64,000 bases of DNA, taken from the NCBI GenBank assembly GCA_020249045.1, contig JADCGK010000003.1, positions 17,077 to 81,076 on the forward strand. Direction: 5' to 3'. Numbering within the stretch: position 1 is the first letter of the stretch; every line of letters begins with the position of its first letter. Below, one piece after another: positions 8,556-58,355 of the stretch. The position numbers and the translations under genes were made by a program. Source of the stretch: Azospirillum sp. (GTDB taxonomy: Bacteria > Pseudomonadota > Alphaproteobacteria > CACIAM-22H2). The notes beneath the pieces are model-generated. The model was given only the letters and a program-made list of their open reading frames with translations, ran no database searches and was not told the origin of the DNA.

Positions 8556-9564
8556 GATGGATGGCATGTCGCAAACGGGGCAAATCGACGACGCGAAAAG
8601 CACCGCGGAACATGCTTTGGAGCGCACGCCGAAGGCGGCCGACGAAACCAAGCGCTTCGAGTTCGTGCACAAGGTCTTCGCGGTTCCCGGCGCGATCTTC
8701 GAACTCGACGACCACACCAACGAACCGGTCTTGAAGCTCGACCTCGGCGATTTGCGCGCGGCGATGACGTTCGAGACGCTGCGCGCGAATTTCGGCCTGA
8801 CGGCGGGCTCGCCCGACGACCGCGCGCTGACGGACGTCGGCAAGGCGTTGGGATTCGTGCGCTGCGTTCGGCCGGGCGACACGATCCCGGCGGAATTGCT
8901 CGACGGCTCGGCGTCCTGGCGGGTCGAACCGCGCCATCTGGCCACCGCCCAAGGGCGGATCACGGCGGGCCTGCTCGCGTGGCTGGGCGAGGGCACCAAA
9001 GCGGAAAGCGCCGTCGAACTGGCCGCCCTCGCGGCCGACGCGGGCGTCAAAGCCAATGTGCAGACGGCCTTCGGCCGCTTGGCCGTGCGCATGGGCCTGC
9101 CCGATGACCGACGCGGTGAAGTCGTCGATGCGGTCGATCGGCTGGCGAACGAACTGTCCTATATCGAGGCATTGCGCGAGAAGGTCGGCCAGACGCGGCG
9201 CGCGGTCGAATTGTTCAAACGTCTGCGCGCGGCCTACAAACGCGAACGCGGGGCGTCGGAAAGTCTGGAGCGGATCGTCCATCTGCTCGAGCGGCCGGTG
9301 AAACGCTACGAAGCGCGCCTTGCCGAAGTCGACGCGCAGACCGGCGAGATCCAGAACACGATCATCAACCTCGCCCGGCAGATCGCCTTCGTTCGCGAGG
9401 CGCGCGATTGGCTGCATCGGGAGATCATGCGCTGGGACGACGTCCTGGAAACCTGGGCTGGGGAATCGGCCGAACCGTCCCACGCCCAGCAACGCAAGAT
9501 CGGCGCGACCTATCGCTTTGCGGCGCGATATTTTCCGCTCGTCGAAGAATGGGTCCACGGCTGA
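8556..9564 (+). CDS. Hypothetical protein with coiled-coil region
   Basis: ATG at 8556 verified. 336 aa. No recognisable catalytic motifs. Directly upstream of, and co-oriented with, the hybrid histidine kinase. Confidence 0.5.
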
Positions 9565-9604
9565 GTTTGCCGGCCGCGACGGGCCGGTTCATAGTCCTCG
9601 AGTC

Positions 9605-11479
9605 ATGTCCGCCGCCGATTCTCCACCGCCCGTGCCGCCGCCCGGAAACCCGCCGGCCGAAGCCGCGCGCGTGCGCGGCTGGTTCGCGGGCCTTGTGGGA
9701 TGCCTTGCGCTAGCGGCGCTGGCCGGCGTTGCGGCACTCGTCGAGCAACCGGGTGCCGTCGAGGCCGCGATCGCGGCAGTACTCTCGGGATTGGGTTGCG
9801 CCGCGGGCCTTGCGCGCGCGTGGCGTGGCGAAGTCGAGCGGCCTTTGGCGCGGCTGGCGCGCGCGGCCGAGGATTTGGCGGGCATCGCACCCGCCGCCGA
9901 TACGGCGCCCCGCGCGGCGATGGAACGTGCGCTCGCCGCCTTGCGCGAAGCGGGGGCCGCGCGCACGCGCGCGGGCCGCGCGGCCGAAAACGCGCGACGT
10001 GCCAAATCGGCGTTCCTGACGGCGATGAGCCACCGGATCCGCACGCCCATGCACGGCATCCTGGGCTTGGTCGAAACCCATGCGGCGGGCGAGATGTCCG
10101 CCGAACGGCGCGCGACGTTGCGCACGGTGCGCCAGTCGGCCGAGAACCTTCTCGCCGTCGTCGACGATCTGGTCGATTACGCGCGCATCGATTCCGATTC
10201 GATCGCCGTCGACCGCCGGGCGACCGACGCGGGCGATCTTCTGGAGCAGGCGGCGGTCAATCTGGCGGGGCTCGCCGAAGCCAAGGGACTGGCGTTGTCG
10301 TGCTTCGTCGATCCCGAAATCGTCGAACGCTTCAAAATCGATCCGTTGCGCGTGCGCCAAGTGCTGTTCAACCTGATCGGCAACGCGATCGGCCGTACGC
10401 AAGCGGGCTTCGTGCATGCGCGCTTGTCGCTGGCGGGCGGACAGTTGATCTTCGCGATCGAGGACAGCGGCGCGGCGCTGGCGCCGGATACGATCGCGCG
10501 TTTGCTCGATCCTTCGGGCGAGCCGGGCGACGGCCTCGCCGCGTTCCGCGCCGGCGCGACGGGGTTGGGCCTGCCAGTGTGCCGGGCGTTGGCCGAACGC
10601 ATGGGCGGACGCATCCGCGTGCAGTCGCGCGAGTCCGGCGGCGCGGTTTTCGCGCTCGAGCTTCCGGCCGAACCGGCCGGCGGCGGCTTGCAGCCTTTGC
10701 CGGCCGCGGACGTGCTGGAAGGCCGGCGCGTGCGGATCGCGGGTGCGGCGGATCCCGCGCATGCGGCGGTGGCGGCCTATCTGATCGCGGCGGGCGCCGC
10801 GATCGTCGGGCCGCGCGACCCCGCCGATCTCGCCATCGCCCTGCCCGGCGCCGGAGATTTCGGTCCGCCCGGTCCCAAGCGACTGCGGTTGACGACGCTG
10901 CCCCCCGTGGGTCCGCCCGAGGAGGCCGATGCGGGCGCCACGCTGTTGCGCCGTTCGGCGATCGTCGCGGCGGCGGCGCGCGCGCTCGATCTCGCCGACG
11001 AAGGGATCGAGGAATCCGACCCCGCGACCTTGCCGCCGTGCGAACCGCCCGCGCGCGACGCCGCGCGCGCGCAAGGCGCGCTCATCCTCGCCGTCGACGA
11101 CCATCCGGTGAACCGCGAGGTCGTGGCCCTGCAACTCGCGCGGTTGGGTTACCTCGCGGACACCGCGGCGAGCGGCGCCCAAGCCTGGACCATGTGGCGC
11201 GCGGAACGCTACGGCCTGATCGTCACCGATCTGCACATGCCCGATTTCGACGGCTTCGAACTCGCCCGGCGCATCCGCGCGGCCGAAATCCAGGAGGACC
11301 GCCCGCGCGTGCCGATCGTCGCGCTGACGGCCGCCACGGGGGCGGAGAACCTCGCGGCCTGCTACGAGGCCGGGATGGACGGCGTATTGGCCAAGCCGCT
11401 GCCGTTCCGGGGGTTGGCCGAAGCCATCCGCCGCTATCTTCCCGCCCGCGCGGACGTCAAAACCAGCCGCGACGCTTGA
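9605..11479 (+). CDS. Membrane-anchored hybrid sensor histidine kinase/response regulator
   Basis: ATG at 9605 verified. Two N-terminal TM segments. H-box SHRIRTPMHGILG. HATPase N/G boxes. A roughly 130-aa Ala/Pro-rich linker. C-terminal REC (ILAVDDHPVNREV...DLHMPDFDGFEL...LAKPL). Confidence 0.8.
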   Translation: MSAADSPPPVPPPGNPPAEAARVRGWFAGLVGCLALAALAGVAALVEQPGAVEAAIAAVLSGLGCAAGLARAWRGEVERPLARLARAAEDLAGIAPAADTAPRAAMERALAALREAGAARTRAGRAAENARRAKSAFLTAMSHRIRTPMHGILGLVETHAAGEMSAERRATLRTVRQSAENLLAVVDDLVDYARIDSDSIAVDRRATDAGDLLEQAAVNLAGLAEAKGLALSCFVDPEIVERFKIDPLRVRQVLFNLIGNAIGRTQAGFVHARLSLAGGQLIFAIEDSGAALAPDTIARLLDPSGEPGDGLAAFRAGATGLGLPVCRALAERMGGRIRVQSRESGGAVFALELPAEPAGGGLQPLPAADVLEGRRVRIAGAADPAHAAVAAYLIAAGAAIVGPRDPADLAIALPGAGDFGPPGPKRLRLTTLPPVGPPEEADAGATLLRRSAIVAAAARALDLADEGIEESDPATLPPCEPPARDAARAQGALILAVDDHPVNREVVALQLARLGYLADTAASGAQAWTMWRAERYGLIVTDLHMPDFDGFELARRIRAAEIQEDRPRVPIVALTAATGAENLAACYEAGMDGVLAKPLPFRGLAEAIRRYLPARADVKTSRDA

Positions 11480-13118: not shown

Positions 13119-13154
13119 CGGCTTGAATTCCGCCGCTTTGTTGGGTTGACTGGG

Positions 13155-13191
13155 ACGGGGTGCGCTTTTCGGGCGTGCCCCGTTCGCTTTC
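13155..13191 (+). terminator. Putative rho-independent terminator after gcrA
   Basis: An 11-bp stem (ACGGGGTGCGC / GCGTGCCCCGT, two G-U pairs) with loop TTTTCGG, followed by TCGCTTTC. Confidence 0.4.
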
Positions 13192-13205
13192 GGGAGTTCG
13201 ACGCG

Positions 13206-14696
13206 ATGACAGATCCGGGCCTGCTGATCGCCAAAGGCGGCGAACCGCACCGTCTGCTGCTGAAATTCGCCAACCGTCACGGCTTGATCGCCGGCGCCAC
13301 GGGCACGGGCAAAACCGTGACGCTGCGCGCGATGGCCGAGGCGTTGTCGCTGGAAGGCGTGCCGGTCTTCGTCGCCGACGTGAAGGGCGATCTGTCGGGC
13401 CTCGCCAAACCGGGCGCCGAGAACGCGAAGTTCCGCACGCGCGCCGACGAACTGGGCATGCCCGATTACGATTTCGCCGCGTGCCCGACCGTGTTCTGGG
13501 ACGTCTTCGGCGAGAACGGCCATCCGCTTCGCGCGACGATTTCCGAGATGGGCCCGCTGCTGCTCGCGCGGTTGCTCGAACTCAACGAAACCCAAGCGGG
13601 GGTTCTGCAACTCGTCTTCAAGGTGGCCGACGACGAAGGCCTGCTGCTGATCGACCTCAAGGATCTGCGTGCGATGCTGACGCACGTCGCCGAGAACGCG
13701 GCCGAGTATCGCGAGCGCTACGGCAACGTTTCCTCGGCGTCGGTGGGCGCCATCCAGCGCGGCCTTCTGGCGCTCGAAGCGCAAGGCGGCGACAAATTCT
13801 TCGGCGAGCCCGAACTCGACATCGCGCATCTGCTGGGCGTGGGCGAGGACGGGCGCGGGATCGTGTCGGTGCTGGCGGCGGAGATTCTGTTCCAGCGGCC
13901 GAAGCTCTACGCGACGTTTTTGCTGTGGCTGCTGTCGGAATTGTTCGAGCATCTGCCGGAAGCCGGCGACGTCGCCAAGCCCAAACTCGTCTTCTTCTTC
14001 GACGAGGCGCATCTGCTGTTTGCCGACGCGCCTAAAGCGTTGGTCGAGAAGGTGGAGCAAGTCGTCCGCCTGATCCGCTCGAAGGGCGTGGGCGTCTATT
14101 TCGTCACCCAAAATCCGCTCGATGTGCCCGAAACCGTGCTGGGCCAGCTCGGCAACCGCGTGCAACACGCGTTGCGCGCCTTCACCCCGCGCGATCAGAA
14201 GGCCGTCAAAGCCGCCGCGCAAACCTTCCGCGCGCGCCCGGGCGTCGACACCCAAACGGCGATCCTCGAATTGGGCGTCGGCGAGGCGTTGGTGTCCTTC
14301 CTGGATGAGAAGGGCGTGCCCGTGCCGGTCGAACGCGCGCGCGTGGTCCCGCCGCGCACGCGGTTGGGGCCGCTCGACGCTTCCGAACGCCTGGGTGCGA
14401 TCAACAATTCGCCGCTTTACGGCGTGTACGAGGAAGCCGTCGAGCGCGAAAGCGCCTACGAAAGACTGAAGGGCGGGGCTGCGGGCAACCCGGCGGCGGC
14501 GGGCGGCATCGCGGGAACGCTCGGCACGATCTTCGGCGGCGGCACCGTCGGCCGGCCGGGCGCGCGCGGCCGCGCGCAGCCCAAATCCTTCGGCGAGCAG
14601 ATCGCCGCGTCGGTCGCCCGGTCGGTCGCCTCGTCGGTCGGTCGGCAGATCGGCGCGCGCATCGTGCGCGGCGTTTTGGGTTCGATCCTCAAATGA
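13206..14696 (+). CDS. DUF853-family (YjgR/HerA-like) P-loop NTPase
   Basis: ATG at 13206 verified. Walker A GATGTGKT, Walker [10 protein letters not shown]. 496 aa. Gly-rich disordered C-terminus. Confidence 0.8.
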
Positions 14697-17700: not shown

Positions 17701-19617
17701 ATGAAGCTATTCGGATCATTCGGCGGCGGCGGCGACGGCTGGCGCGACTTCTTCGAAACGGCGCCGGTCGGGCTCTTCGAGATCGATTCCGGCGGCCGAT
17801 TCGTTCGCGCGAACAAGCGATTCGCCGAAATCCTGGGGCGTCCCGCGCCCGAAATCCTCGGCGGCCTGCGATGGGCGGACGTGCTCGCCGAGCCGCTTTC
17901 AATCGCCGATCCCGCCGCAATTTTTGCGGATCCGGCGCAGAGTTCCGGCGATCTGCGGCTTCGCCGCGTGGCCGGCCCCCCGGCGCATGTGACGGTCGAT
18001 ATCGACCGAACCAGCGGCCGCATCCGAGGCCTCGTACGCGACGCCGGACGCGAGCGCGAAATGGCGGAAGCGTTACGCCGCAGCGAACGGACGTTCCGCC
18101 GGTTCTTCGAGAACGCGCCGGTGGGCGTGGCGCTCGTCGATCCGGACGGTCGCCTGACCGAAACCAACGCCGCCTTCCGCAAACTGATCGCGACGGACCG
18201 CGAGACGGCGATCGGCCGGCCGTTGGCCGATTGCGTGGCGCCGGAAGATCGCGAGGATTTGCCGCGGCGCCTGCGGAAACTCGCCGCCGACGCCGTCGCG
18301 CGCGACGCGCCCGACCGTTTGGCCCTGCGCTTGCGCGCCTTCGACGCGGGCGCGGGTCGGGACATCCCCGTGGCGGTCTACGCCCGGCCGCTCGACGACG
18401 TCGCCGGCGCCGAAGGCGCGACGATCCTGCACTTCCTCGACGTGACCGAACAGCGGCGACTCGAGACGCAATTCGCGCAATCCCAGAAGATGCAGGCGGT
18501 CGGCCAACTTGCGGGCGGAGTGGCGCACGATTTCAACAACCTGCTGACGGCGATGATCGGTTTTTGCGATCTGCTGCTGCTGCGCCATCAGCCCGGCGAT
18601 TCGTCGTTCGCCGACATCATGCAGATCCGCCAGAACGCCAACCGCGCGGCGAATCTGGTGCGCCAGTTGCTCGCTTTCTCCCGCCAGCAGACGCTGCAGC
18701 CCAAAGTGCTCGACGCGAGCGAGGCGCTGACCGAGCTTTCCCATCTGCTGCGCCGCCTGATCGGCGCGGCAATCGAGTTGAAGGTCGTGCACGCGCGCGA
18801 CCCTTGGCCGGTGCGCGTCGATCAAGGGCAGCTCGAGCAGGTCATCATCAATCTGGCCGTGAACGCGCGCGACGCGATGCCCCACGGCGGCACGCTGACC
18901 ATCCGCACGTCCAACGCCTCGCGCGCGAAGCCCGAACGCCACGGCGACGAGGAGATTCCGGCCGGCGACTATGTGCGCATCGACGTGGAGGATACGGGCA
19001 CGGGCATTCCGCCCGACATCCTCGGGCGGATCTTCGAGCCGTTCTTCTCGACCAAGGAAGTCGGCTCGGGAACCGGGCTGGGGCTTTCGACCGTCTACGG
19101 CATCGTTCGCCAGACCGGCGGCTTCGTGCTGGTGGAGACCGAGCAAGGCAAGGGATCGACCTTCACGCTGCTTTTGCCGCGTTGGACGGGGCCGGCGGGT
19201 GCGCAAGGCGGCGTGGAGCCCGCGCGCAAACGCGACCTGACCGGTGCCGGCACCATCCTGCTGGTCGAGGACGAGGATGCCGTCCGCCTGTTCGGCGCGC
19301 GCGCGCTGCGCAACAAGGGGTACAAGGTGGTCGAGGCCAAAACGGGGGATGCCGCGCTCGACATCGTGCGCGAGATGGGCGCCGAAATCGATCTTCTGAT
19401 CACCGATGTCGTCATGCCCCAAATGGACGGAACCACGCTGATCCGCGAGGCGCGCAAGCTTTTTCCGGCGCTGAAGATCGTCTGCATTTCCGGGTATGCG
19501 GAGGAGCAGTTCCGCCAGAACCTGGAAGGCTTCGAGAACGTCCATTTCCTGCCCAAGCCCTTCAGCCTGGATCAGCTCGCAGGGAAAGCCAAGGAGGCGA
19601 TGCGCGCCTCGCCCTGA
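17701..19617 (+). CDS. cckA: CckA-like hybrid histidine kinase (PAS-PAS-HisKA-HATPase-REC) without transmembrane region
   Basis: ATG at 17701 is the first codon after an in-frame TAA at 17686. H-box region [34 protein letters not shown], and [15 protein letters not shown], match my recollection of CckA signatures. C-terminal REC ([11 protein letters not shown]...DVVMPQMDG...LPKPF). Confidence 0.7.
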
Positions 19618-19626
19618 CCGCGGCGG

Positions 19627-21447
19627 TCAGAGGGCGCCGGCGCGGATCCAAAAACGGAAGACGCTGCCCGCGCCCGGCGCGCTCTTCGCCTCGATGCCGC
19701 CGTCCATCGCGGCGGCCAAACGCTTGCAGATCGCAAGCCCCAATCCGGTCCCCCCGCGCGTGCGCGTCGTCGAGGTGTCGGCCTGATAGAACGGCACGAA
19801 CAGCCGGGCGAGCGTCGCCTCGTCCATGCCGATGCCGGTATCGGCGACTTCGCCGGTCAAGCGCCAGCGGCCGTCCGGCTCCCGGTCGGCGGTGAAGCGC
19901 ACGTCGATGCGGCCGCGCTCGGTGAACTTGATCGCGTTGCCGACCAGATTGACGACGACCTGGCGCAAGCGGCCGCCGTCGCCCGCGACACGGTGCGGCA
20001 GACCGGGCGCGATCCGGAACACGAGCGCGTTGCCACGCTCCGCCGCACGGGCCTGAAGACCGGCGACCGCCGATTCGATCGTTTCGACCGGGTCGTAGGC
20101 GCCATGGGCGAGTTGGAGTTTGCCCGCCTCGAGCTTGGCGAGATCCAGCAGGTCGTCGACGATCGCGATCAAGGCTTCGGCCGAAGCGCGCGCGATCGCC
20201 GCCCACCGCGCTTGCTGGGGTGCCAGCGGCGAATCCTCGATCAGATCGAGCGTGCCGATCACCCCGTTGAGCGGCGTACGCAACTCGTGACTCACCATCG
20301 CGAGGAATTCCGACTTGGCGCGGTTGGCGGCCTCGGCGGCGAAGCGCGCGCGCTCGGTTTCCGTCTCGTCGCGGATCGTGGCGAACACGCGCCGGGCGAC
20401 GCGCGCGGCGTCGAACTCCACGCGGAAATCCTCGCGCACGTAGCGGATCGCGCCGTCCGGGCGGACCATCCGATAGCGCCGCGTGCCGCGCGCCTGGGGC
20501 GTGCGGAAGACGTCGAGAAGGCCCTCGCGGTCGTCCGGGTGCACGCAAGCGAGCCAGGCTTCGCGCGTCGCGGGCGCGTTCTCCGGGACGCCCCAAATCG
20601 CGCGGGCGCGCGGCGACCAATTCTGCGCGGCGTCGTCGCGGTCGGCCGTCCACCACCCCAGTTCGGCGACGTTCAAGGCCAGCGCCAGATGCGCCTGGGT
20701 TTCGTTGAGCGCGGTCATGTCGCGCACGACCGTCGCGATGCCGCCCGCGCGGGTGCGGCGTTCGATCGTGCGGTAGACGCGCCCCACATGCCCGCCCTCG
20801 ACGATCGGCGGTCCCGGATTGCGGTGCCGTTCGAGCCGCTCGAGACGCCAAATCTCCCGGACGGCGGCGTCGCTGAATTGCGGCAAGACCGACGCCAGAT
20901 GCGCGATCAGCGCCTCGAACTGCACGCCGTGGCGCAGCACCGGCGCGAGTTGGGGGAACATTTCGAGGTAGCGGCGGTTGTAGACGACGACACGGTCGGC
21001 GGCGTCGCACAGGCAGAACCCGTCCGACAGCGATTCGAGTCCGTCGGCGATCAAGGCCTCGGCGTCCTTCAACGCCGTCACGTCGACGACGGTGCCGATC
21101 CGCAAGGAGCCTTCGGCCGCCTGGCCGATTTCGCGGAACCAGCGATACTCGCCCGAGTCCGACCGAGCGCGGTAGACGACATCCATCCGCTCGCCGCCGC
21201 GCAACGCGCGATGGGCGGCCAAGTAGGCGCGTCTGTCGTCCGGATGCAGGTATCTCGCCAGCATCAACAGGTCCGCGCGCGCGAAGGCGACGGGATCAAA
21301 GCGCCAAACGCGCGGCAGATTGGGCGAGTAGCGGAATCGGCCGACGCTTACGTCCCACTGCCACGTCGCGGCACCCGAAATCTCGAGCGCCTGTTCGAGA
21401 TGCGCGGCCAGCATCGTGCGGTCGGGATCGATGTCGCTTGCGTTCAC
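19627..21447 (-). CDS. Soluble multi-PAS sensor histidine kinase (no receiver)
   Basis: GTG start at 21445-21447 per the track; an alternative ATG at 21412-21414 (MLAAHLEQ). Three PAS-like segments. H-box SHELRTPLNGVIG. HATPase N, G1 and G2 boxes. Confidence 0.8.
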   Translation of the reverse strand: MNASDIDPDRTMLAAHLEQALEISGAATWQWDVSVGRFRYSPNLPRVWRFDPVAFARADLLMLARYLHPDDRRAYLAAHRALRGGERMDVVYRARSDSGEYRWFREIGQAAEGSLRIGTVVDVTALKDAEALIADGLESLSDGFCLCDAADRVVVYNRRYLEMFPQLAPVLRHGVQFEALIAHLASVLPQFSDAAVREIWRLERLERHRNPGPPIVEGGHVGRVYRTIERRTRAGGIATVVRDMTALNETQAHLALALNVAELGWWTADRDDAAQNWSPRARAIWGVPENAPATREAWLACVHPDDREGLLDVFRTPQARGTRRYRMVRPDGAIRYVREDFRVEFDAARVARRVFATIRDETETERARFAAEAANRAKSEFLAMVSHELRTPLNGVIGTLDLIEDSPLAPQQARWAAIARASAEALIAIVDDLLDLAKLEAGKLQLAHGAYDPVETIESAVAGLQARAAERGNALVFRIAPGLPHRVAGDGGRLRQVVVNLVGNAIKFTERGRIDVRFTADREPDGRWRLTGEVADTGIGMDEATLARLFVPFYQADTSTTRTRGGTGLGLAICKRLAAAMDGGIEAKSAPGAGSVFRFWIRAGAL

Positions 21448-27435: not shown

Positions 27436-27996
27436 TCAGGCCCGACCCGCGAGGGTCAGGTGGAGACGCTTGAGTTGGCCTTGCAGCGAGGCGTCGACGA
27501 GGCGGGAACCCACCTTCACCTTCAGCCCGCCCAGGATGCGGGGGTCGACCTTGAGGTCGAGCGAGATCTTGCGGCCAGCGCGGCCCGCGAGCGCGGCTTC
27601 CAGCGCCGCTTTCTGCGCGTCGGTCAACTCGACCGCCGACACGACTTCGGCGGTCGTTTCGCCGCGCTTGGCGGCCAAAAGATCGCGATACGCGGCGAAA
27701 ATCGTCGAAAAACCGCCCAGACGGCGGTTCCGGGCGAGCGTGCCGAGGAAGCGGCGCACCAAATCGCCGATCCCGAGCGCCTGGGCGACCGCCAAAAGGG
27801 CGGCTTCCTGCGCCTTGCGCGGCAGCAGCGGGCTCGACATCGCGCGGCGCAAATCGGCCGACTGGCTGCGCGCGGCTTCGATCTTCTTGAGGTCGGCCAG
27901 AACGGCGTCCAGGGCCTTGCCTTCATCGGCCAATTCGTAGAGCGCGCCCGCGTAACGCTGAGCGAGGCCGGCGGCGACGGAACTGTCGGATGCCAC
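27436..27996 (-). CDS. atpH: F0F1 ATP synthase subunit delta
   Basis: 186 aa. First gene of the atpHAGDC operon (F1 operon separated from F0, as in alphaproteobacteria). Confidence 0.85.
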
Positions 27997-28237
27997 GGAG
28001 CGGACTTCCTTTTGGACCGGAATTGCGACCCCCTCGAGCGGGCCGCAACCCCATTGAAAAACAACAGAAAACCAGGCGGGATAGATCGCCTTCCCACCGG
28101 CGCGGGCGAGTAGCTACCACAGCCCCCCTCGCGATGCAATAAGCCTCGGCCCGTCGTCGGCGGAAGTCGGTGAATTCAGACTCGATTAAGCGCTTCGCGA
28201 GATAGTCTTGGCGTCTCGCAGGGATTTTCAGCCGACA

Positions 28238-29836
28238 ATGACCGCTTCGCCCGACATGGTGACAAAGCGACGCACCCGCGCCGCGACGCCGTTCCTGGCG
28301 GCGGCGGTGGCGAGCGCTTTGATCTTCTTGGGCGCGTTCATGGCTGCGGAGTTCGACCGGCAGGCGACGCGCACGCACGGCGAAGCGCACTACGCCGACC
28401 TCCTGCACTTGCAAAGCGAGCGCGTGGAAAGCTTCGTCGACCGCATCGCGCAAAGCCTGCGTTTCATCGCCTATTTGCAGGAGCGCGACGGCGCGCCGCC
28501 CGATCTCGCCGCACTCGTCGCCGGCAATCGGCTCGACGCCAGCGACGTGCTGCAATTCGCCTCGATCGACGCCGAGGGCATGGTTCGCGCCTCGAATTTG
28601 CCGCTGGGCCGGGCGTCGGTTTCGATCGCCGATCGGCCGCATTTTCGCGCCGCCGCGCAAGGCGGGGACGGGGTGCAATTCAGCCGCCCCGTGTTGGGCC
28701 GCGTGTCGGGGCAATGGAGCGTGCAGATGGTGCGCGCGGTGCGCTCGGAATCGGGGGCGTTTCTCGGGGTCGTCGGGGCGTCGATCGACACGGGCGTGTT
28801 GGATCGCTTGCTGGACGTGCCGGGCTTCGAGGGCGGCTTCGCGCTGATCGGCGCGGACGGCGCCGTCCGCGCGCGCACGCCGCCGAACTCGGAGCGGCGC
28901 AACGTCGACGATCCGGCGCATCCGTTGGTCGCGCGGATGCGCGAATCGGAAACGGGCGTTTGGGAAGGTCCGCCGCCGTGGGCCGAAACGCCGAAGGTCG
29001 CGCTGTGGCGGAAGGTGGATTCGCATCCGCTTTACGTCGTCGCGGCCGTTCCCGCGGCGACGCTGACCGCCGACGCGACCGCGCGTGCGCGCTACTACTG
29101 GGCCGCCGCGGGCCTCGCCGCGGGCGGCACTTTCGTCTTCGCCGCGTTCGCGGCACGCCGGCGCGCGCGTCTGGAGGCGACGCTGGCACGCGCGCGCGCC
29201 GCCGCGATCGAACAGGCCCGTCTCCTCGATTCCTTGGGCACGGATCTGCGCGGCCCCGTCGACATCCTGCGCTGGTCGATCGATACGCTCGCCGACCCGG
29301 CCGACGAACCCGCACGCCGTCGAGCACTCGCCGATTTGCGCCGGGCGGACGCCGCCTTGGCCCGCGCGGCGGACGACGCGGCCGTTTTGGCCCGACTGAT
29401 GCGCGATTCCTCGGCGGTCGAATCCCGGCCGATCGACGCGCGCGATTGGGCGCGCGGCGCCTTCGAAACGGCGCGCGCGCGCGCGGGCGGCGCGGGCGTC
29501 ACGTGCGATTTGGCGTTGGATTTGCCCGAGGGCTTGCGCATCGTCGCCGACGAGAAGGGATTGCGCCGCGTGGCGGAAACGCTGCTCGGCGCGGCGTTCG
29601 AGCGCGCGGGCCGCAGCGGGCGCGTCGGTTTTTCGGTCGGCGCGCGCGGGCTCGACGCCCGCACCGTGGAAATCGCCATCGCGGTTTCGGCATCCGGCGA
29701 AGCCTTGCGCCCGGACGCGCAAACCGGCGGCATGGCGACGGCGCTGGCCCAGGCGCTGGGCGGGCGCGTCGAACGCCTGGCGGGGCCCAACGGCACGCTC
29801 GACGTTTTCAAAGCCGGCTTCGCGCGCGCGGCCTGA
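28238..29836 (+). CDS. Membrane sensor with periplasmic Cache-like domain and degenerate (pseudo) histidine-kinase module
   Basis: First ATG at 28238; the track ORF starts at the TTG at 28208. Two TM helices flank a roughly 240-aa periplasmic domain with a Cache-like DRPHF...GVQFSRPV core. The HisKA-like helix reads SLGTDLRGPVDIL, with no His at the phospho-acceptor position. In the HATPase-like region the N-box Asn and the G1 Asp are replaced (LLGAAFERAG; AVSASGEAL). Confidence 0.6.
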   Translation: MTASPDMVTKRRTRAATPFLAAAVASALIFLGAFMAAEFDRQATRTHGEAHYADLLHLQSERVESFVDRIAQSLRFIAYLQERDGAPPDLAALVAGNRLDASDVLQFASIDAEGMVRASNLPLGRASVSIADRPHFRAAAQGGDGVQFSRPVLGRVSGQWSVQMVRAVRSESGAFLGVVGASIDTGVLDRLLDVPGFEGGFALIGADGAVRARTPPNSERRNVDDPAHPLVARMRESETGVWEGPPPWAETPKVALWRKVDSHPLYVVAAVPAATLTADATARARYYWAAAGLAAGGTFVFAAFAARRRARLEATLARARAAAIEQARLLDSLGTDLRGPVDILRWSIDTLADPADEPARRRALADLRRADAALARAADDAAVLARLMRDSSAVESRPIDARDWARGAFETARARAGGAGVTCDLALDLPEGLRIVADEKGLRRVAETLLGAAFERAGRSGRVGFSVGARGLDARTVEIAIAVSASGEALRPDAQTGGMATALAQALGGRVERLAGPNGTLDVFKAGFARAA

Positions 29837-29839
29837 GCG

Positions 29840-32035
29840 TCACAGAAAACTGTAGGGATCGATATCCACCGCCAAGCGCACGGCGGACGGGATTTGCGTT
29901 TGCGCGAGCCAATCGCGCAAAACACCCTGCAAATCGACCTCGCGCGTCGCTTTGACCAGCAACCGGCGCCGATGCCGCCCGCGCAGGATCGCCATGGCCG
30001 CGGGCGCAGGGCCCAGCACTTCCACACCGGCACCGCGCGGCGCGGTCGCCCCCAGCCGTTTGGCGATGCGATCCACCAACGCTTCGTCCTCGCCCGACAG
30101 AACCAGCGCGGCCAAGCGCCCGAACGGCGGCCAGTTGCGCTTGCGCCGGTCCTCGCGCTCGGCCGCCAGGAAGCGCGCCCGGTCGCCCGCGACCAGCGCC
30201 TTCATCACCGGATGCTCGGGCATGTGGGTTTGCAGCAGCACGCGGCCGGGCCGTTCGGCGCGGCCCGCGCGGCCCGCGACCTGATGCAGCAACTGCCACG
30301 ACCGCTCGCCCGCGCGCAGATCCCCGCCCGCAAGGCCGATATCCGCGTCCACGATGCCCACCAGCGTCAGCAGCGGAAAATGGTGACCCTTCGCGACGAT
30401 CTGGGTGCCGACCAGGATGTCGATTTCCCGCGCGGCCATCGCGCGCACGAATTCGGCCGCCGCCGCCGGCCCCGCGACGGTGTCCGACGTCATCACCGCG
30501 ATCTTCGCGTCCGGGAACAGGGCTTGCGCCTCCTCCGCCACGCGCTCGACGCCCGGACCGCACGCGACGAACGAATCCTCGGCCGTGCAGGACGGGCATT
30601 GGCGCGGCAACGGTGCGGCATAGCCGCAATGATGGCATTGCAGACGCCCGTGCAGCCGGTGTTCGACCAGCCAAGCCGTGCAGCGCGGGCATTGCAGGCG
30701 ATGCCCGCACGCGCGGCACAAGGTCAACGGCGCGTAGCCGCGGCGGTTCAAGAACAGCATCGCCTGTTCGCCCGCCTCCAGCGCGTCGGCCAACGCCGCG
30801 CGCAAGGGCGGAGACAGGAACCGGCCGCGCGGCGGCGGGGTTTTGCGCAAATCGATCGCGGCGACCCGCGGCAGCGTGGCGCCGCCGTGGCGCGCGGGTA
30901 GTTCGACGCGGCCATAACGACCGCGCTCGACGTTGGCGAGCGTTTCGAGCGACGGGGTGGCCGAAGCGAGCACCACCGGCACGGCTTCGAAGCGCGCGCG
31001 CACCACGGCCATGTCGCGCGCGTGATAGATCGTGCCGTCCTCCTGCTTGAAGGCTTGCTCGTGCTCCTCGTCCACGACCACGAGCCCGAGATCGCGGAAC
31101 GGCAAGAACAGCGCCGAGCGTGCGCCGACGACCGTCCGCGCGCGGCCTTCGGCGATCTGCCGCCACACGCGCGCGCGCAGATGGCCGGGCAGTTCGGAAT
31201 GCCAGGCGACCGGGGGCGCGCCGAAGCGCTCTTCGAACCGCGCGAGCCATTGCGCGCTCATCGCGATTTCCGGCAGCAGCACCAGCGCTTGCTTGCCCGC
31301 CGCGAGCGTCGCGGCGACGGCCTCGAAATAGACCTCCGTTTTGCCCGAGCCGGTCACGCCGTCGAGCAGCGTCGTCGAGAAACCCGCGCCGCATTTCTCG
31401 AGCAGCGCATCGGCCGCCGCGCGCTGGTCGGGATTGAGGTCGGCGAGAACCGGCGCGCGCGACGGCGGCGCGCCGAAATCGGCGGGCAGATCGATCGGTT
31501 CGAGCCAGCCTTTGTCGACGAGCCCTTTGACGACCGCCGCACCCACCCCGGCCGCGCGCGCAAGCTCGCCCGGGGGTCGCGCGCCGGCCATCGCTTCGCG
31601 CAAAACCCTGCGGCGCGCGGGCGTCAATACGCCCGGTTCGTCGAGTTCGGGATCGGGCGCACCGGCCGCCAGCGCCACGGCGCGCTTGGGCTTGGGCGGC
31701 TCCAACGCGGCGGGCACGCTCATGGCCATGCGCAAAACCGTGCCCGGCGGCGACAGCGTGTAGCGCGCGACCCAATCCACGAAGCCGCGCAAGGGCGCGC
31801 GCATCGCGGGCGCGTCGAGCTTGCCGCGCACCGGCTTCAGCCGCGACGGTTCGAAAGCCGGATCGGGCGGTTCGTCCCACACGACGCCGGTTTCGGTCCG
31901 CGGCCCGAGCGGCACGCGCACGAAATCCCCGGCCGCGAGATCGAGCGCCTCGGGCACGGCGTAATCGTAGGGCCCCAGGCGCAAGGGGAGCATCACGCGC
32001 ACGCGCTTGCCCGGGCTGGATCGCGATTCGGCCAT
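29840..32035 (-). CDS. priA: Primosomal protein N' (replication restart helicase PriA)
   Basis: 731 aa. Walker [13 protein letters not shown] box, Cys4 zinc-binding CxxC...CxxC cluster. Confidence 0.9.
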
Positions 32036-46871: not shown

Positions 46872-48014
46872 TTACGTCCCGCCCAGATGCGGGGCAGCGA
46901 GATAATCCTCGGACTGCATCTCGTGCAGGCGGCTGGCCGTGCGCTGGAATTCGAAGGCGTGGTCGCCTTTCGGGTGCAGCCGGTCGGGCGCGTCGTCCGC
47001 GGCCATCACGAGCTTGCAGCGATGCTCGTAAAGCGCGTCGATCAGCGTGACGAAACGGCGCGCTTCGTTGCGGTTGTCGGGCGTCAGGATGGGGACGCCG
47101 TCGAGCACGAGCGTGTGATAGGCGCGCGCCAGCGCCAGATAATCGGCCGCCCCGCGCGCGCCCGCGCACAGGCTTTCGAAATCGCAGAACGCCACCCCGC
47201 CGCCCGCGCGCGGAAGATCCAGATCGCGCCCGCCCACGTCGAGCGTGGCGGGGCCCACCGTCGCGCCCTCGGTCAACGCGGCGAAGGCCTTTTCGAGCTG
47301 CGCGGTCGAACGCGCGCCCACCGGCCAGTGATAGACCGGCATGCCGCGAATGCGGATGCGCCGGTAATCGACCCCGCCGTCGAGTTCGAGCACGTCGAGC
47401 TTGGCCTTGAGCGTGTCGATCGCCGGCAGGAAACGTTCGCGCTGCAGCCCGCCCGCGTAGAGATCGTCGGGCGCGATGTTGGACGTCGCCACGACCACCA
47501 CGCCCTTGTCGAGCATCGCGCCGAACAACCGGCCCAGGATCATCGCGTCGGCGATGTTGGTCACCTGGAATTCGTCGAAGCAGAGCAGCCAGGCCTCCTC
47601 GGCGAGTGCCGCGGCCAAAGGCGGGATCGGGTCGCCGTCGCCCTTCTTGGCCTCGCCCGATTGGCGCCAGGCGTGGATGCGCGCGTGCGTCTCCAGCATG
47701 AACGCGTGGAAATGGACGCGGCGCTTCTTGGCCACCGGCGCGTGGGCGAAGAACAGATCCATCAGCATGGACTTGCCGCGCCCCACCCCGCCGAACATGT
47801 ACAGCCCCGCGGGCGGCGCGCCGGCCTGTTCGAGGCCGAATTTCCGCGCGAAGCCGAGCGAGGCGCGCCAGAAGCCGGGCCGCGGGTCGGGTTTGTAGGC
47901 GGCCAACGCACGCGCCAGCGTGCCGAGTTTTTCCACCGCGAAGGCTTGGGCGGGATCGGGTTTGATCGATCCGTCGGCGAGCTTGGCGCGATAGGCGTCG
48001 AGGATGGTGCTCAT
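46872..48014 (-). CDS. zapE: Cell division protein ZapE (AFG1-like ATPase)
   Basis: 380 aa; cat verified at 48012-48014. Walker A GGVGRGKS, Walker B LLCFDEF. Confidence 0.85.
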   Translation of the reverse strand: MSTILDAYRAKLADGSIKPDPAQAFAVEKLGTLARALAAYKPDPRPGFWRASLGFARKFGLEQAGAPPAGLYMFGGVGRGKSMLMDLFFAHAPVAKKRRVHFHAFMLETHARIHAWRQSGEAKKGDGDPIPPLAAALAEEAWLLCFDEFQVTNIADAMILGRLFGAMLDKGVVVVATSNIAPDDLYAGGLQRERFLPAIDTLKAKLDVLELDGGVDYRRIRIRGMPVYHWPVGARSTAQLEKAFAALTEGATVGPATLDVGGRDLDLPRAGGGVAFCDFESLCAGARGAADYLALARAYHTLVLDGVPILTPDNRNEARRFVTLIDALYEHRCKLVMAADDAPDRLHPKGDHAFEFQRTASRLHEMQSEDYLAAPHLGGT

Positions 48015-48715
48015 CGGCCCAGCAACTCCGCCACGAAAGCGGGTACGAGGACGCCGGCCGGGCCGTAGCGCTTCTCGGCGAAGGCGCTCGCGACCTCGGA
48101 GGGTTCGAGATTTATCTCGACCGTGCGCGCACCCGCCGCGCGCGCGTGTTCGACCAGACCGGCGGCCGGATAGACCGCGCCGGAGGTTCCGATCGACGCG
48201 AAGATCGCGCACGCGCGCACCGCGGCGATCGCCTCGTCCATGAAGAAGGGCATTTCGGTGAACCAAACCACATGCGGGCGCAACGTGCCGTCGTTCCCGC
48301 ACTTCGCGCATACGCTCTCCGCACCCAGATCGACGCGGGCCTCGCGCACGTCCCCGCAGGCGAAGCAGCGCGACTTCAACAATTCGCCGTGGATGTGGAG
48401 CAGGTTTTTCGAGCCCGCGCGTTCGTGCAGATCGTCGACGTTCTGCGTGACGATCGCGACCGGGCCGGGCCATTCGGCCTCCAACCGGGCGAGGGCCGCG
48501 TGTGCGGCGTTCGGGGCGATTTTGGGATCGAGCAGGCCCCGCCGGCGCGCGTTGTAGAAGCCTTGCACCTTGACTGGATCCCGGACGAAGGCGGACGGCG
48601 TCGCCACGTCCTCGATGCGGACCCGCGACCACACGCCGTCCGCGTCGCGGAACGTGTCGATTCCCGACTCCTTGGAAATTCCGGCCCCGGTGAGGACGAC
48701 GATCGAGCCCGCCAT
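48011..48715 (-). CDS. cobB: NAD-dependent protein deacylase (Sir2 family, CobB-type)
   Basis: Start MAGSIVVLTGAGIS verified (cat at 48713-48715). QNVDxLH, catalytic HG, and CxxC...CxxC zinc ribbon. ATGA overlap with zapE. Confidence 0.8.
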   Translation of the reverse strand: MAGSIVVLTGAGISKESGIDTFRDADGVWSRVRIEDVATPSAFVRDPVKVQGFYNARRRGLLDPKIAPNAAHAALARLEAEWPGPVAIVTQNVDDLHERAGSKNLLHIHGELLKSRCFACGDVREARVDLGAESVCAKCGNDGTLRPHVVWFTEMPFFMDEAIAAVRACAIFASIGTSGAVYPAAGLVEHARAAGARTVEINLEPSEVASAFAEKRYGPAGVLVPAFVAELLGR

Positions 48716-48785
48716 GCCCCGGGAAATTACCAGCCCGCCGGTCGCATGCACGGGAAATATCGGGCGAACCGCCCCCCGCGGCGCG

Positions 48786-49325
48786 TCAATCGCGCAGGAA
48801 GAATTCGGCCTCCTGGGTATAGACCGGCCCGCCCGCGCGGCGCAGGCTCGAATAGATCGCGAAGCGATCCACATGGATCGGCCCCGCCTTGAACAGCGCG
48901 TGGCGCGTCAGGAATTCGCGGATTTTTTCGAGCGGGGCGTCCTGCAGCCGGGCGAGGGTGACGTGCGGCGCGAATTTGCGCGGCGCGGGATCGAAGCCTT
49001 CGCGCCGGCAAGCTTCGTCGATCCGCCGGTGCAGCGCATCCAAGGCCGGCGATTTGCGCACGCCCGCCCACAGAACGCGGACGTCCTCGCCGGTCGAAAA
49101 ATGCCCCACGCCGTCGAGCTCGATGTCGAACGGCGCGGCGCGCACGCCCATCATCGCGTAGCCCAAATCCTCCGCCCGGTCCTCGGGCACGTCGCCGACG
49201 AAGCGCAAGGTCAGGTGGAACGCGTCGCTCTCGACCCAATCCGCTCCCGGCACCCCGCCGGTCAGCGCATCGAGCCGCGCGCGGATATCCTCCGGAAAGC
49301 CGAGTGCCACGAACAGGCGCAGCAT
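48786..49325 (-). CDS. thpR: RNA 2',3'-cyclic phosphodiesterase (2H family ThpR/LigT)
   Basis: 179 aa. Two HxT/S motifs (FHLTLRF and PHVTLARL). Confidence 0.8.
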   Translation of the reverse strand: MLRLFVALGFPEDIRARLDALTGGVPGADWVESDAFHLTLRFVGDVPEDRAEDLGYAMMGVRAAPFDIELDGVGHFSTGEDVRVLWAGVRKSPALDALHRRIDEACRREGFDPAPRKFAPHVTLARLQDAPLEKIREFLTRHALFKAGPIHVDRFAIYSSLRRAGGPVYTQEAEFFLRD

Positions 49326-57100: not shown

Positions 57101-57182
57101 TTCCGCCCCGGTCACCGTGCCGTAACGCAAGCGGACTAAGACTCCCCTTGTTGTCGCGTGACAGCGGAGGGGTGTGCGTGAG

Positions 57183-58355
57183 ATGTTAGTTTCGAACGCA
57201 ACCGTCAGGAGATTCGAGGCAGTGGACGACGGGCCGCAAGATCGGCGCGATGCGCTCGACGTCGGCGCCCTGCGCGCGATCGTCGATGCCTTGCCGCTGT
57301 TCGTGAACGTGAAGACGCGCGACAGCCGCTACGTCTACATGAACGCCTTCCAAGCCGCGACCTACGGCACGACGCCCGCACTGGCGGTCGGCCGCACCGC
57401 GGCGGAATTGCTCGGCGCGGATTACGGGGCCTACACCGGCGGCATCGACCGCATGGTGCTGGAGACGGGCAAGGCGGTCGCGAACCTCGACGAGCGTTAC
57501 GCGGGCATCGACGGCCGCGAGCGCGACTGGCTGACGACCAAATTGCCCTGGCGCGGCGCCGACGGCGCAACGCAAGGCGTGGTCACGATCGCGCTCGACG
57601 TGACCGACAAGAAGGCGTCCGAACGCGCCCTCGCCGACGCGCTGGTGCGCTCGGAGGCGGCGAACCGCGCCAAGACCGCCTTCATACGCACGGTCAGCCA
57701 CGAATTGCGCACGCCGCTGAACGCCGTGATGGGCTTCGGCGAACTGATCGCGGGCGGGGACCTGCCGCCCGCGCGCGCGGCCGAATACGCGCGCCTGATG
57801 CTCGAAAGCGCGCATGGTTTGCTCGCGCTGATCGACGGGGTCATCGAATTGTCGAGTTTGAGCGGCGGAGGGGCGCCCTATCCGGCCGCCCCCTCGGCGA
57901 TCGACGAGGCCGTCGCGGGCGCACTGGCCGGCGCCGAGGAAGCCGCGAAGGCGCGCAACATCGCCCTGGTCGCGGCGGTGGAACCGGATCTGCCATCTTT
58001 ACGGTGCGAGCGGGCGGCTTTGCGCCGCATGCTCGATCCCCTGATCGCCAACGCGATCAAATTCGGCCGCGAAGGCGGCACGGCGTCGGTGACGGCCACG
58101 CGCGCCGAAGGCGGCGGGATACGGGTGATCGTCGCCGACGACGGCATTGGGATCGCGCCCGAAGACATCGCCGCCTGCCTGGAACCGTTCGGGCAGGTGG
58201 AAAGCGGGCTCACGCGACGGCATGGCGGCATCGGCTTGGGCTTGCCTTTGGTGAAGGCGCAAATCGAGGCGCATGGCGGGACTTTGGCTTTGGAAAGCCG
58301 CAAAGGCGCCTTCACCCGTGTGACGATTGTTTTTCCGCTGGGGCGGGTTGCCTAA
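57183..58355 (+). CDS. Soluble PAS sensor histidine kinase
   Basis: ATG at 57183 (GGAGGGG upstream); the track ORF starts at the GTG at 57174. H-box SHELRTPLNAVMG. HATPase N/G boxes. Confidence 0.8.
   Translation: MLVSNATVRRFEAVDDGPQDRRDALDVGALRAIVDALPLFVNVKTRDSRYVYMNAFQAATYGTTPALAVGRTAAELLGADYGAYTGGIDRMVLETGKAVANLDERYAGIDGRERDWLTTKLPWRGADGATQGVVTIALDVTDKKASERALADALVRSEAANRAKTAFIRTVSHELRTPLNAVMGFGELIAGGDLPPARAAEYARLMLESAHGLLALIDGVIELSSLSGGGAPYPAAPSAIDEAVAGALAGAEEAAKARNIALVAAVEPDLPSLRCERAALRRMLDPLIANAIKFGREGGTASVTATRAEGGGIRVIVADDGIGIAPEDIAACLEPFGQVESGLTRRHGGIGLGLPLVKAQIEAHGGTLALESRKGAFTRVTIVFPLGRVA

Follow-up and report, generated by a model that had tools for sequence, protein, structure and literature searches.

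How a protein laid out as a membrane-bound sensor histidine kinase might signal after losing the residues of phosphotransfer is the question raised by a gene on contig JADCGK010000003.1 of Azospirillum sp., which lies within a stretch of 64,000 nucleotides (hereafter the window). The gene occupies positions 28238–29836 of the + strand, stop codon included, and is complete, encoding 532 residues. We consider its product probably to be a histidine pseudokinase, namely an inner-membrane receptor with a double-Cache (dCache) sensor that signals by binding a partner. Its core is derived from a kinase, its catalytic residues have been lost and selection has maintained it, as is characteristic of pseudokinases, and it belongs to an undescribed, narrowly distributed family within the known histidine pseudokinase class.

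The coding frame was identified from the G+C content at third codon positions (GC3), which is 0.857 in the pseudokinase frame, 0.857 in the neighbouring gene priA and 0.834 in the neighbouring gene atpH. The overlapping open reading frames (ORFs) have lower values, 0.71 for the antisense one and 0.58 for an alternative one on the + strand, so that 28238–29836 is taken as the coding frame. The start codon, ATG at 28238, agrees with the N-termini of all homologues, which excluded a TTG at 28208 that would add 10 residues. The 12 other homologue clusters align over their full length, with the exception of P0011, which is 5'-truncated, and P0012, which has an internal gap.

Homology to histidine kinases, with the DHp hairpin and a Bergerat-type sandwich kept in the predicted model, was shown computationally by several methods. 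An AlphaFold2 (AF2) model, built on a 13-sequence alignment and having a mean predicted local distance difference test (pLDDT) score of 82, comprises a long helix that includes the second transmembrane segment and the first DHp helix (residues 273–351), a second helix (354–393) and an alpha/beta domain (397–530) whose strands and helices follow the order of a kinase CA domain. A DHp-like helical hairpin was accordingly delimited at residues ~318–393 (29189–29416, +) from the AF2 helices, the hhalign match and HMMER alignments to ShkA, DivL, RetS and HK853, and a CA-like, HATPase_c-derived domain at residues 397–530 (29426–29827, +) from AF2, Foldseek, hhalign and sub-threshold HATPase_c matches. 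Comparison of the family with 140 canonical kinase cores in hhalign gave a probability of 99.6% and an E-value of 1.1e-24 over 206 columns. Searched against the Protein Data Bank (PDB), the family profile of the cytoplasmic half retrieved ShkA (E 2e-8), RetS (2e-5), DivL (2e-5) and HK853 (5e-5), and Foldseek matched the core to WalK, YF1, bacteriophytochrome kinases, GacS, DivL (24% identity), CpxA and RetS. NCBIfam returned only weak matches, over residues 326–490, to PhoR, RstB, CreC and RcsD. In Pfam, the window protein matched neither HisKA (PF00512) nor HATPase_c (PF02518), and sub-threshold matches were obtained for 5 and 7 of 12 family members, respectively, with a best E-value of ~0.003. 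Four canonical kinases encoded in the same window pass both profiles at E-values of 1e-9 to 1e-28.

The catalytic motifs were read in the 13 sequences of alignments A1/A2 and in P0014. At the H-box position stands SLGTDLRGPV (residues 332–341; 29231–29260, +), which aligns to (L/I/V)SHE(F/I/L)RTP(L/M) of ShkA and RetS and to VSYELRTPL of DivL, the latter having Tyr at the His site. Thr335 (nt 29240–29242) thereby occupies the acceptor site, which is T, A, D, G or Q across the family, next to a conserved (D/E)LR.P. The window protein has His only at residues 47, 51, 57, 135, 228 and 263, all periplasmic; its cytoplasmic half is free of His, so that no realignment can put one at the acceptor site. 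In HisKA kinases the His is followed by the phosphatase motif E/D-x-x-T/N (PMC12963549), of which the acidic residue at H+1 is kept here and the T/N at H+4 is replaced by G, R, H or E in the family, with Gly339 in the window protein.

The nucleotide-binding boxes are likewise altered. In the N-box remnant LLGAAFERAG (29582–29611, +), the alignments with ShkA, DivL and RetS as well as hhalign place Ala452 (nt 29591–29593) at the Mg-ATP-binding Asn; this site is A, H, Q or T across the family, and the invariant Ala453 that follows corresponds to the canonical Ala after the Asn. The G1-box remnant AIAVSASGE (29675–29701, +) places the invariant Ala485 (nt 29690–29692) at the adenine-binding Asp according to hhalign, the RetS alignment and an AF2 strand at 476–486. 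Another register, at GARGLD, was dropped owing to its conflict with the profile–profile and RetS alignments and with the strand–hairpin–strand topology. A short loop at residues 487–496 (29696–29725, +) takes the place of the F-box and ATP lid: hhalign opens a gap of 21 columns there, corresponding to a deletion of ~21 residues that comprises the F-box and most of the lid, and the loop is of low confidence in the AF2 model (pLDDT <50 at 491–496). In the G2-box remnant with its following helix, GGMATALAQALGG (29726–29764, +), GxGLGL aligns with AQTGG- in hhalign, so that two of the three glycines are lost and only Gly498, which is invariant, is kept. Intact ORFs of similar length were found, in independent assemblies, in the 12 other clusters and in 4 further loci of metagenome-assembled genomes (MAGs), and the sequences in which the motifs were read have the losses in common, which ruled out a sequencing error or frameshift.

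Taken together, the protein is predicted from its sequence and model neither to bind ATP nor to autophosphorylate nor to dephosphorylate a regulator. A preliminary description of the locus had already reported the His-less H-box, the substituted N-box Asn and G1 Asp and the degenerate G2 box, and had concluded that the sensor is likely to be catalytically dead. HMMER, hhalign and the AF2 model reproduce each of these motif-level statements, the substitutions are shared by the family (with a variable residue at the His site), and the deletion of the F-box and lid, the missing phosphatase T/N and the lack of any cytoplasmic His add to its conclusion. That the protein is still an enzyme, working with a non-canonical acceptor or nucleotide site, is scarcely credible: the (D/E)LR.P adjoining the place of the lost His is retained, as is the fold as a whole, but the acceptor-site residue is variable, no cytoplasmic His is invariant, and neither the Asn nor the Asp nor the lid is left.

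The N-terminal half was found to have a double PAS-like fold in the periplasm, flanked by a transmembrane helix on either side. The first helix spans residues 17–37 (28286–28348, +), with a Kyte–Doolittle maximum of 2.29, and is helical in the AF2 model. It is followed by a dCache_1-like sensor at residues ~40–272 (28355–29053, +), delimited from Pfam, the PDB profile search and Foldseek, and by a second transmembrane helix at ~286–307 (29093–29158, +), which hydropathy and a single AF2 helix at 273–336 show running into the DHp helix; the model has no HAMP, PAS or other linker domain at this junction. The Pfam profile dCache_1 (PF02743) matched residues 53–229 with an E-value of 3.6e-11 and 43.5 bits, thus just missing its cut-off of 45 bits, and is recorded by the source databases for 7 of the 13 clusters. 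The family profile retrieved the dCache sensor 3lif from the PDB (E 1.1e-14), and Foldseek aligned the predicted sensor to 3lif with a TM-score of 0.77 and to PctA, Tlp3 and Mlp37 with values of 0.6–0.75. The order of elements given in the preliminary description, i.e. transmembrane segment, periplasmic Cache-like domain, transmembrane segment, HisKA-like and HATPase-like, is thus borne out by hydropathy, Pfam, AF2 and Foldseek. Invariant residues of the sensor include S129, D132, R133, H135 and F136, which form an S-x-x-D-R-x-H-F motif. The closest solved sensor domain, 3lif, belongs to rpHK1S-Z16 of Rhodopseudomonas palustris and has a DRxYF/DRxHF motif in common with the family; its entry covers the sensor domain only and labels the protein both a putative histidine kinase and a diguanylate cyclase. 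The ligand of the Cache domain is not predictable, given that its sequence-level matches were limited to 3lif and KinD.

Selection on the gene was estimated as the ratio of non-synonymous (dN) to synonymous (dS) divergence by the Nei–Gojobori method, using genome pairs whose flanking genes have a dS of 0.1–0.4. The ratio was 0.13–0.43 for the pseudokinase gene, with 0.16–0.48 for the sensor half and 0.10–0.34 for the kinase-like half, and 0.05–0.07 for priA. The 97.5% bootstrap upper bounds did not exceed 0.53, which indicates that the protein is under purifying selection, fast-evolving but constrained. Indels among close orthologues measure 3 or 12 nt and are in-frame, and all 8 loci examined at the DNA level are intact. 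Of note, the synonymous divergence of the sensor half (28238–29137) is 2–4 times that of priA and atpH in comparisons with loci L004 and L011–L014, and three allele classes of this half occur within one subgroup. The raised dS may reflect recombination or allelic exchange, or it may be an artefact of the estimator.

Conservation is greatest outside the classical kinase boxes. The best-conserved stretch of the family is a near-invariant beta-hairpin, GRVGFSVGARGLD (residues 461–473; 29618–29656, +), which has invariant columns from G461 to D473 and includes an R-x-x-D; together with the C-terminal GTLDVFKAGF, it forms the most conserved motifs. In all, 70–80 columns are invariant among sequences as low as 39% identical, including the long runs of the hairpin and GTLDVF, and the mean column identity is 80% in the C-terminal half compared with ~60% in the sensor. 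Strong conservation also extends to those residues of DHp alpha-1 and alpha-2 through which regulators and partner kinases are usually contacted.

This pattern could mean that the core was repurposed outside two-component signalling, with the CA-like domain binding a small molecule or a protein foreign to such systems and the whole acting as a scaffold or receptor, comparable to PsmA with DivIVA. The position of the best-conserved motifs would suit such a role, and PsmA demonstrates that pseudokinases can serve partners of this kind (PMC12963549). We nevertheless regard it as possible but unlikely: the DHp contact residues are strongly conserved too, no ligand-binding family was matched, and an R-x-x-D is by itself too short to serve as evidence. 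A more specific version, in which the GRVGFSVGARGLD hairpin and GTLDVFKAGF bind a second messenger or other effector outside two-component signalling and the sensor half is exchanged as alleles, would make the protein a fast-diversifying, non-phosphorylating transmembrane receptor of an undescribed type; this we consider very improbable.

In the reading that we prefer, a pseudokinase receptor that acts on a signalling partner, the cytoplasmic core descends from a HisKA/HATPase_c kinase and its DHp-like bundle would most likely still dimerise. Ligand binding at the dCache domain would be transmitted down the second transmembrane helix into this bundle, and the output would consist in altered binding of a partner by the bundle or by the membrane helices. 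Such a partner would most likely be a genuine histidine kinase, engaged through DHp or transmembrane contacts as in the RetS–GacS and RocA–CovS pairs; alternatively, a response regulator could dock on the DHp-like bundle, as DivK does on DivL. In either case, the partner gene would lie elsewhere in the genome. Action through protein–protein interaction, as the preliminary description had also proposed, is suggested by analogy with these systems.

Several points weigh against this interpretation. No kinase or regulator gene was found within ~8 kb of the pseudokinase gene at the syntenic locus L001, as annotated with Pfam, and the surroundings contain no conserved one either, in keeping with the earlier remark that a partner regulator is absent from the surroundings. 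The loss of ATP binding is read from sequence and a model, and the register of the G1 box differs by method, with MAFFT and the ShkA HMMER alignment selecting GARGLD and hence Ala469, even if under either register the Asp is replaced by Ala (Ala485 or Ala469) and the domain is >20 residues short. Furthermore, for matched genome pairs dN is 10–17 times as high as in priA, and across the deepest split of the family, between two subgroups, dN/dS reaches 0.57–0.76 for the whole protein and up to 0.87 for the C-terminal half alone, which would also fit weak constraint; the estimates at this split were kept out of the inference owing to a dS near saturation.

The rapid divergence and the high ratios at the deepest split would be expected of a decaying relic, i.e. 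an acquired sensor kinase left without its partner and on its way to becoming a pseudogene, its frame remaining open mainly since stop codons are rare at 70% G+C. Long spurious ORFs are indeed common in the window, the family occurs in a single clade only, and a partner gene did not come to light. We judge this account quite unlikely, as dN/dS is 0.13–0.43 with bounded upper limits where dS is unsaturated, GC3 has been kept, unlike in the overlapping ORFs, the indels preserve the frame in a set of loci that are all intact, and the invariant columns persist, with the supposedly dead C-terminal half more conserved than the sensor.

The distribution of the family was examined in protein and genome collections. 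A word-indexed search of 5.8 billion proteins returned 13 clusters (at 90% identity), which are 39–100% identical to the window protein. When 1.84 billion representatives were searched exhaustively with HMMER, two full-length sequences and one fragment (402, 294 and 100 bits) were obtained, and the next match scored 82 bits; the nine next-best matches that were read have intact SHELR(T/N)P(L/V), NLL(S/T)NA, GxGLGL and, at G1, D(T/S/N)G.G motifs. The named sources are MAGs labelled Magnetospirillum sp., whose sequence is identical to that of the window, and Tagaea sp., the latter genus being a member of the Rhodospirillaceae. Among GTDB genomes, the hand-made pattern P.GTLDVF(K/R)(A/V/G)G located the gene in three Tagaea MAGs and one unclassified Proteobacteria MAG ('ALPHA1'), along with four chance matches, and an alignment-driven scan of these genomes gave no matches. 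For clusters P0003, P0004 and P0005, the source names include 'signal transduction histidine kinase' and 'sensor histidine kinase BarA', labels that are misleading in view of the motif losses.

In the window, the gene lies between atpH (27436–27996, −) of the F1 ATP synthase operon and the convergent priA (29840–32035, −), as the preliminary description had noted, and all 11 placeable members of the family have it in this position. At these loci, AtpH is 86–92% and PriA 83–89% identical to the window proteins, and the pseudokinase is only 39–59% identical. The 83–92% identity of the flanking proteins places the carriers in one close, Tagaea-like clade whose synteny is inherited. In outgroups, whose PriA is 68–76% identical, priA either stands directly beside atpH, at 85–187 bp, or is separated from it by a TetR gene and a small ORF. 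The absence of the gene from this spot in the outgroups identifies it, computationally, as an insertion specific to the clade, placed in antisense orientation between the stop codon of priA and the atp promoter. The outgroups, too, have the promoter-like element and leader that lie upstream of atpH, and only the ~100 bp adjoining the pseudokinase gene are new; this upstream region (28141–28237, +), which presumably bears its promoter, occurs only in gene-carrying genomes, the outgroups sharing only the atpH-proximal part in the intergenic alignment A3.

Given this arrangement, the receptor might be functionally coupled to its neighbours and, with a divergent promoter region in common, regulate PriA or the expression or activity of ATP synthase. 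The constant position between atpH and priA, the 241-bp divergent region shared with atpH and the distance of 3 nt between its stop codon and that of priA are consistent with such coupling. We give it little credence, however: the carriers are close relatives, as judged from AtpH and PriA, so that synteny is expected by descent; the outgroups have priA beside atpH or an unrelated TetR gene between them; and conservation of the promoter-like element and leader of atp does not depend on the presence of the gene. For the same reasons, i.e. the similarity of the carriers' flanking proteins and the outgroups that lack the gene, synteny was rejected as evidence of function.

Some further features of this intergenic setting were recorded. 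In the window, 3 nt separate the stop codon of the pseudokinase gene from that of priA (29834–29842), and in L001 (9596–9599) and L004 (2623–2626), as well as in L002, L003 and L005, the two ORFs overlap by 4 nt, which leaves no space for terminators between these convergent genes. Over 27900–30000, a sigma-70 promoter scan found no consensus match, and the terminator search produced a single terminator-like match, fewer than expected from shuffled sequences. An Rfam scan of the whole window returned nothing at the gathering thresholds. Upstream of atpH, at ~28040–28140 (−), a promoter-like TTGCAT-N17-TAGCTA precedes a hairpin and a run of T (tool match at 28091–28074, −). This element recurs at 9257–9520 of L015 and 8191–8377 of L017 and is kept both in carriers and in gene-less outgroups; it probably represents the promoter of the atp operon together with a structured leader or an attenuator, and it has no Rfam match. 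In related Rhodospirillales, accessory genes seem to have landed repeatedly in the priA–atpH spacer (L015 8183–9256, L016 8254–8338 and L017 8191–8377).

Four characterised proteins invite comparison with the pseudokinase. RetS of Pseudomonas aeruginosa (PDB 6dk7, 6dk8 and 7n0e) binds GacS through DHp contacts and blocks it, rather than phosphorylating a regulator (PMC8498467). It, too, is a sensor in the membrane that joins a ligand-binding domain in the periplasm to a kinase-like core, and it ranks with the top matches obtained here by sequence (E 2e-5) and by fold (Foldseek); yet it retains the H-box His (ISHEIRTPM) and the G1 Asp, and it has two receiver domains and a different sensor. In DivL of Caulobacter crescentus (PDB 4q20), the kinase core is a binding surface for phosphorylated DivK (PMC4211667). 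Like the protein described here, it is an alphaproteobacterial pseudo-histidine kinase without an acceptor His (24% identity, E 2e-5), but a Tyr stands at its His site, its N-box (LVENALRQT) still contains the Asn, and it carries cytoplasmic PAS domains instead of a periplasmic Cache domain; moreover, it is essential and widely conserved, whereas the present family is found in one clade.

PsmA of Streptomyces binds DivIVA, and its H-box, XSLRGP, is variable at the His site (PMC12963549). The residue at this site changes with the species (D, Q, V or Y in PsmA compared with T, A, D, G or Q here), the E/DxxT/N phosphatase motif is absent, the ATP motifs are degenerate with a lid incompatible with ATP, and the protein is restricted to a single lineage, all of which resembles the present family. 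PsmA is, in contrast, cytoplasmic, with PAS domains, a long disordered linker, a receiver domain and DivIVA as its partner, and there is no specific sequence relationship between the two. Finally, RocA of group A Streptococcus modulates the genuine kinase CovS by interaction in the membrane (PMC7028121). It is also a membrane-embedded pseudokinase without a cognate regulator, but it has six transmembrane segments and no Cache domain, and its retained His is dispensable. A literature search combining Cache and pseudokinase found no paper.

Pseudokinases derived from histidine kinases are increasingly seen as connectors that wire linear two-component pathways into networks, and few families have been defined. 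The present one is unusually clean, in that all catalytic elements including the lid are gone, the Cache sensor is intact and purifying selection is in force, and its origin is datable to one insertion event within a genus-level clade. The protein could thus provide a simple model for the transmission of a periplasmic signal without phosphotransfer. For annotation, it shows labels such as the BarA name carried by some homologues to be wrong. Practical consequences are modest, as the hosts are uncultured, Tagaea-like MAGs.

The canonical kinases of the window that passed the Pfam profiles are encoded at 9320–11479 (+), 17701–19617 (+), 19627–21447 (−) and 57174–58355 (+); two of them are hybrids with receiver domains and three have PAS domains. 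The pair at 17.7–21.4 kb is convergent, lies 7–10 kb from the pseudokinase gene and is absent from L001. Other genes of the window encode a HerA-like helicase (13146–14696, +; Pfam HerA_C, E 2e-218), a DUF4394 protein (717–2393, +) and a Sir2-family protein (48011–48874, −).

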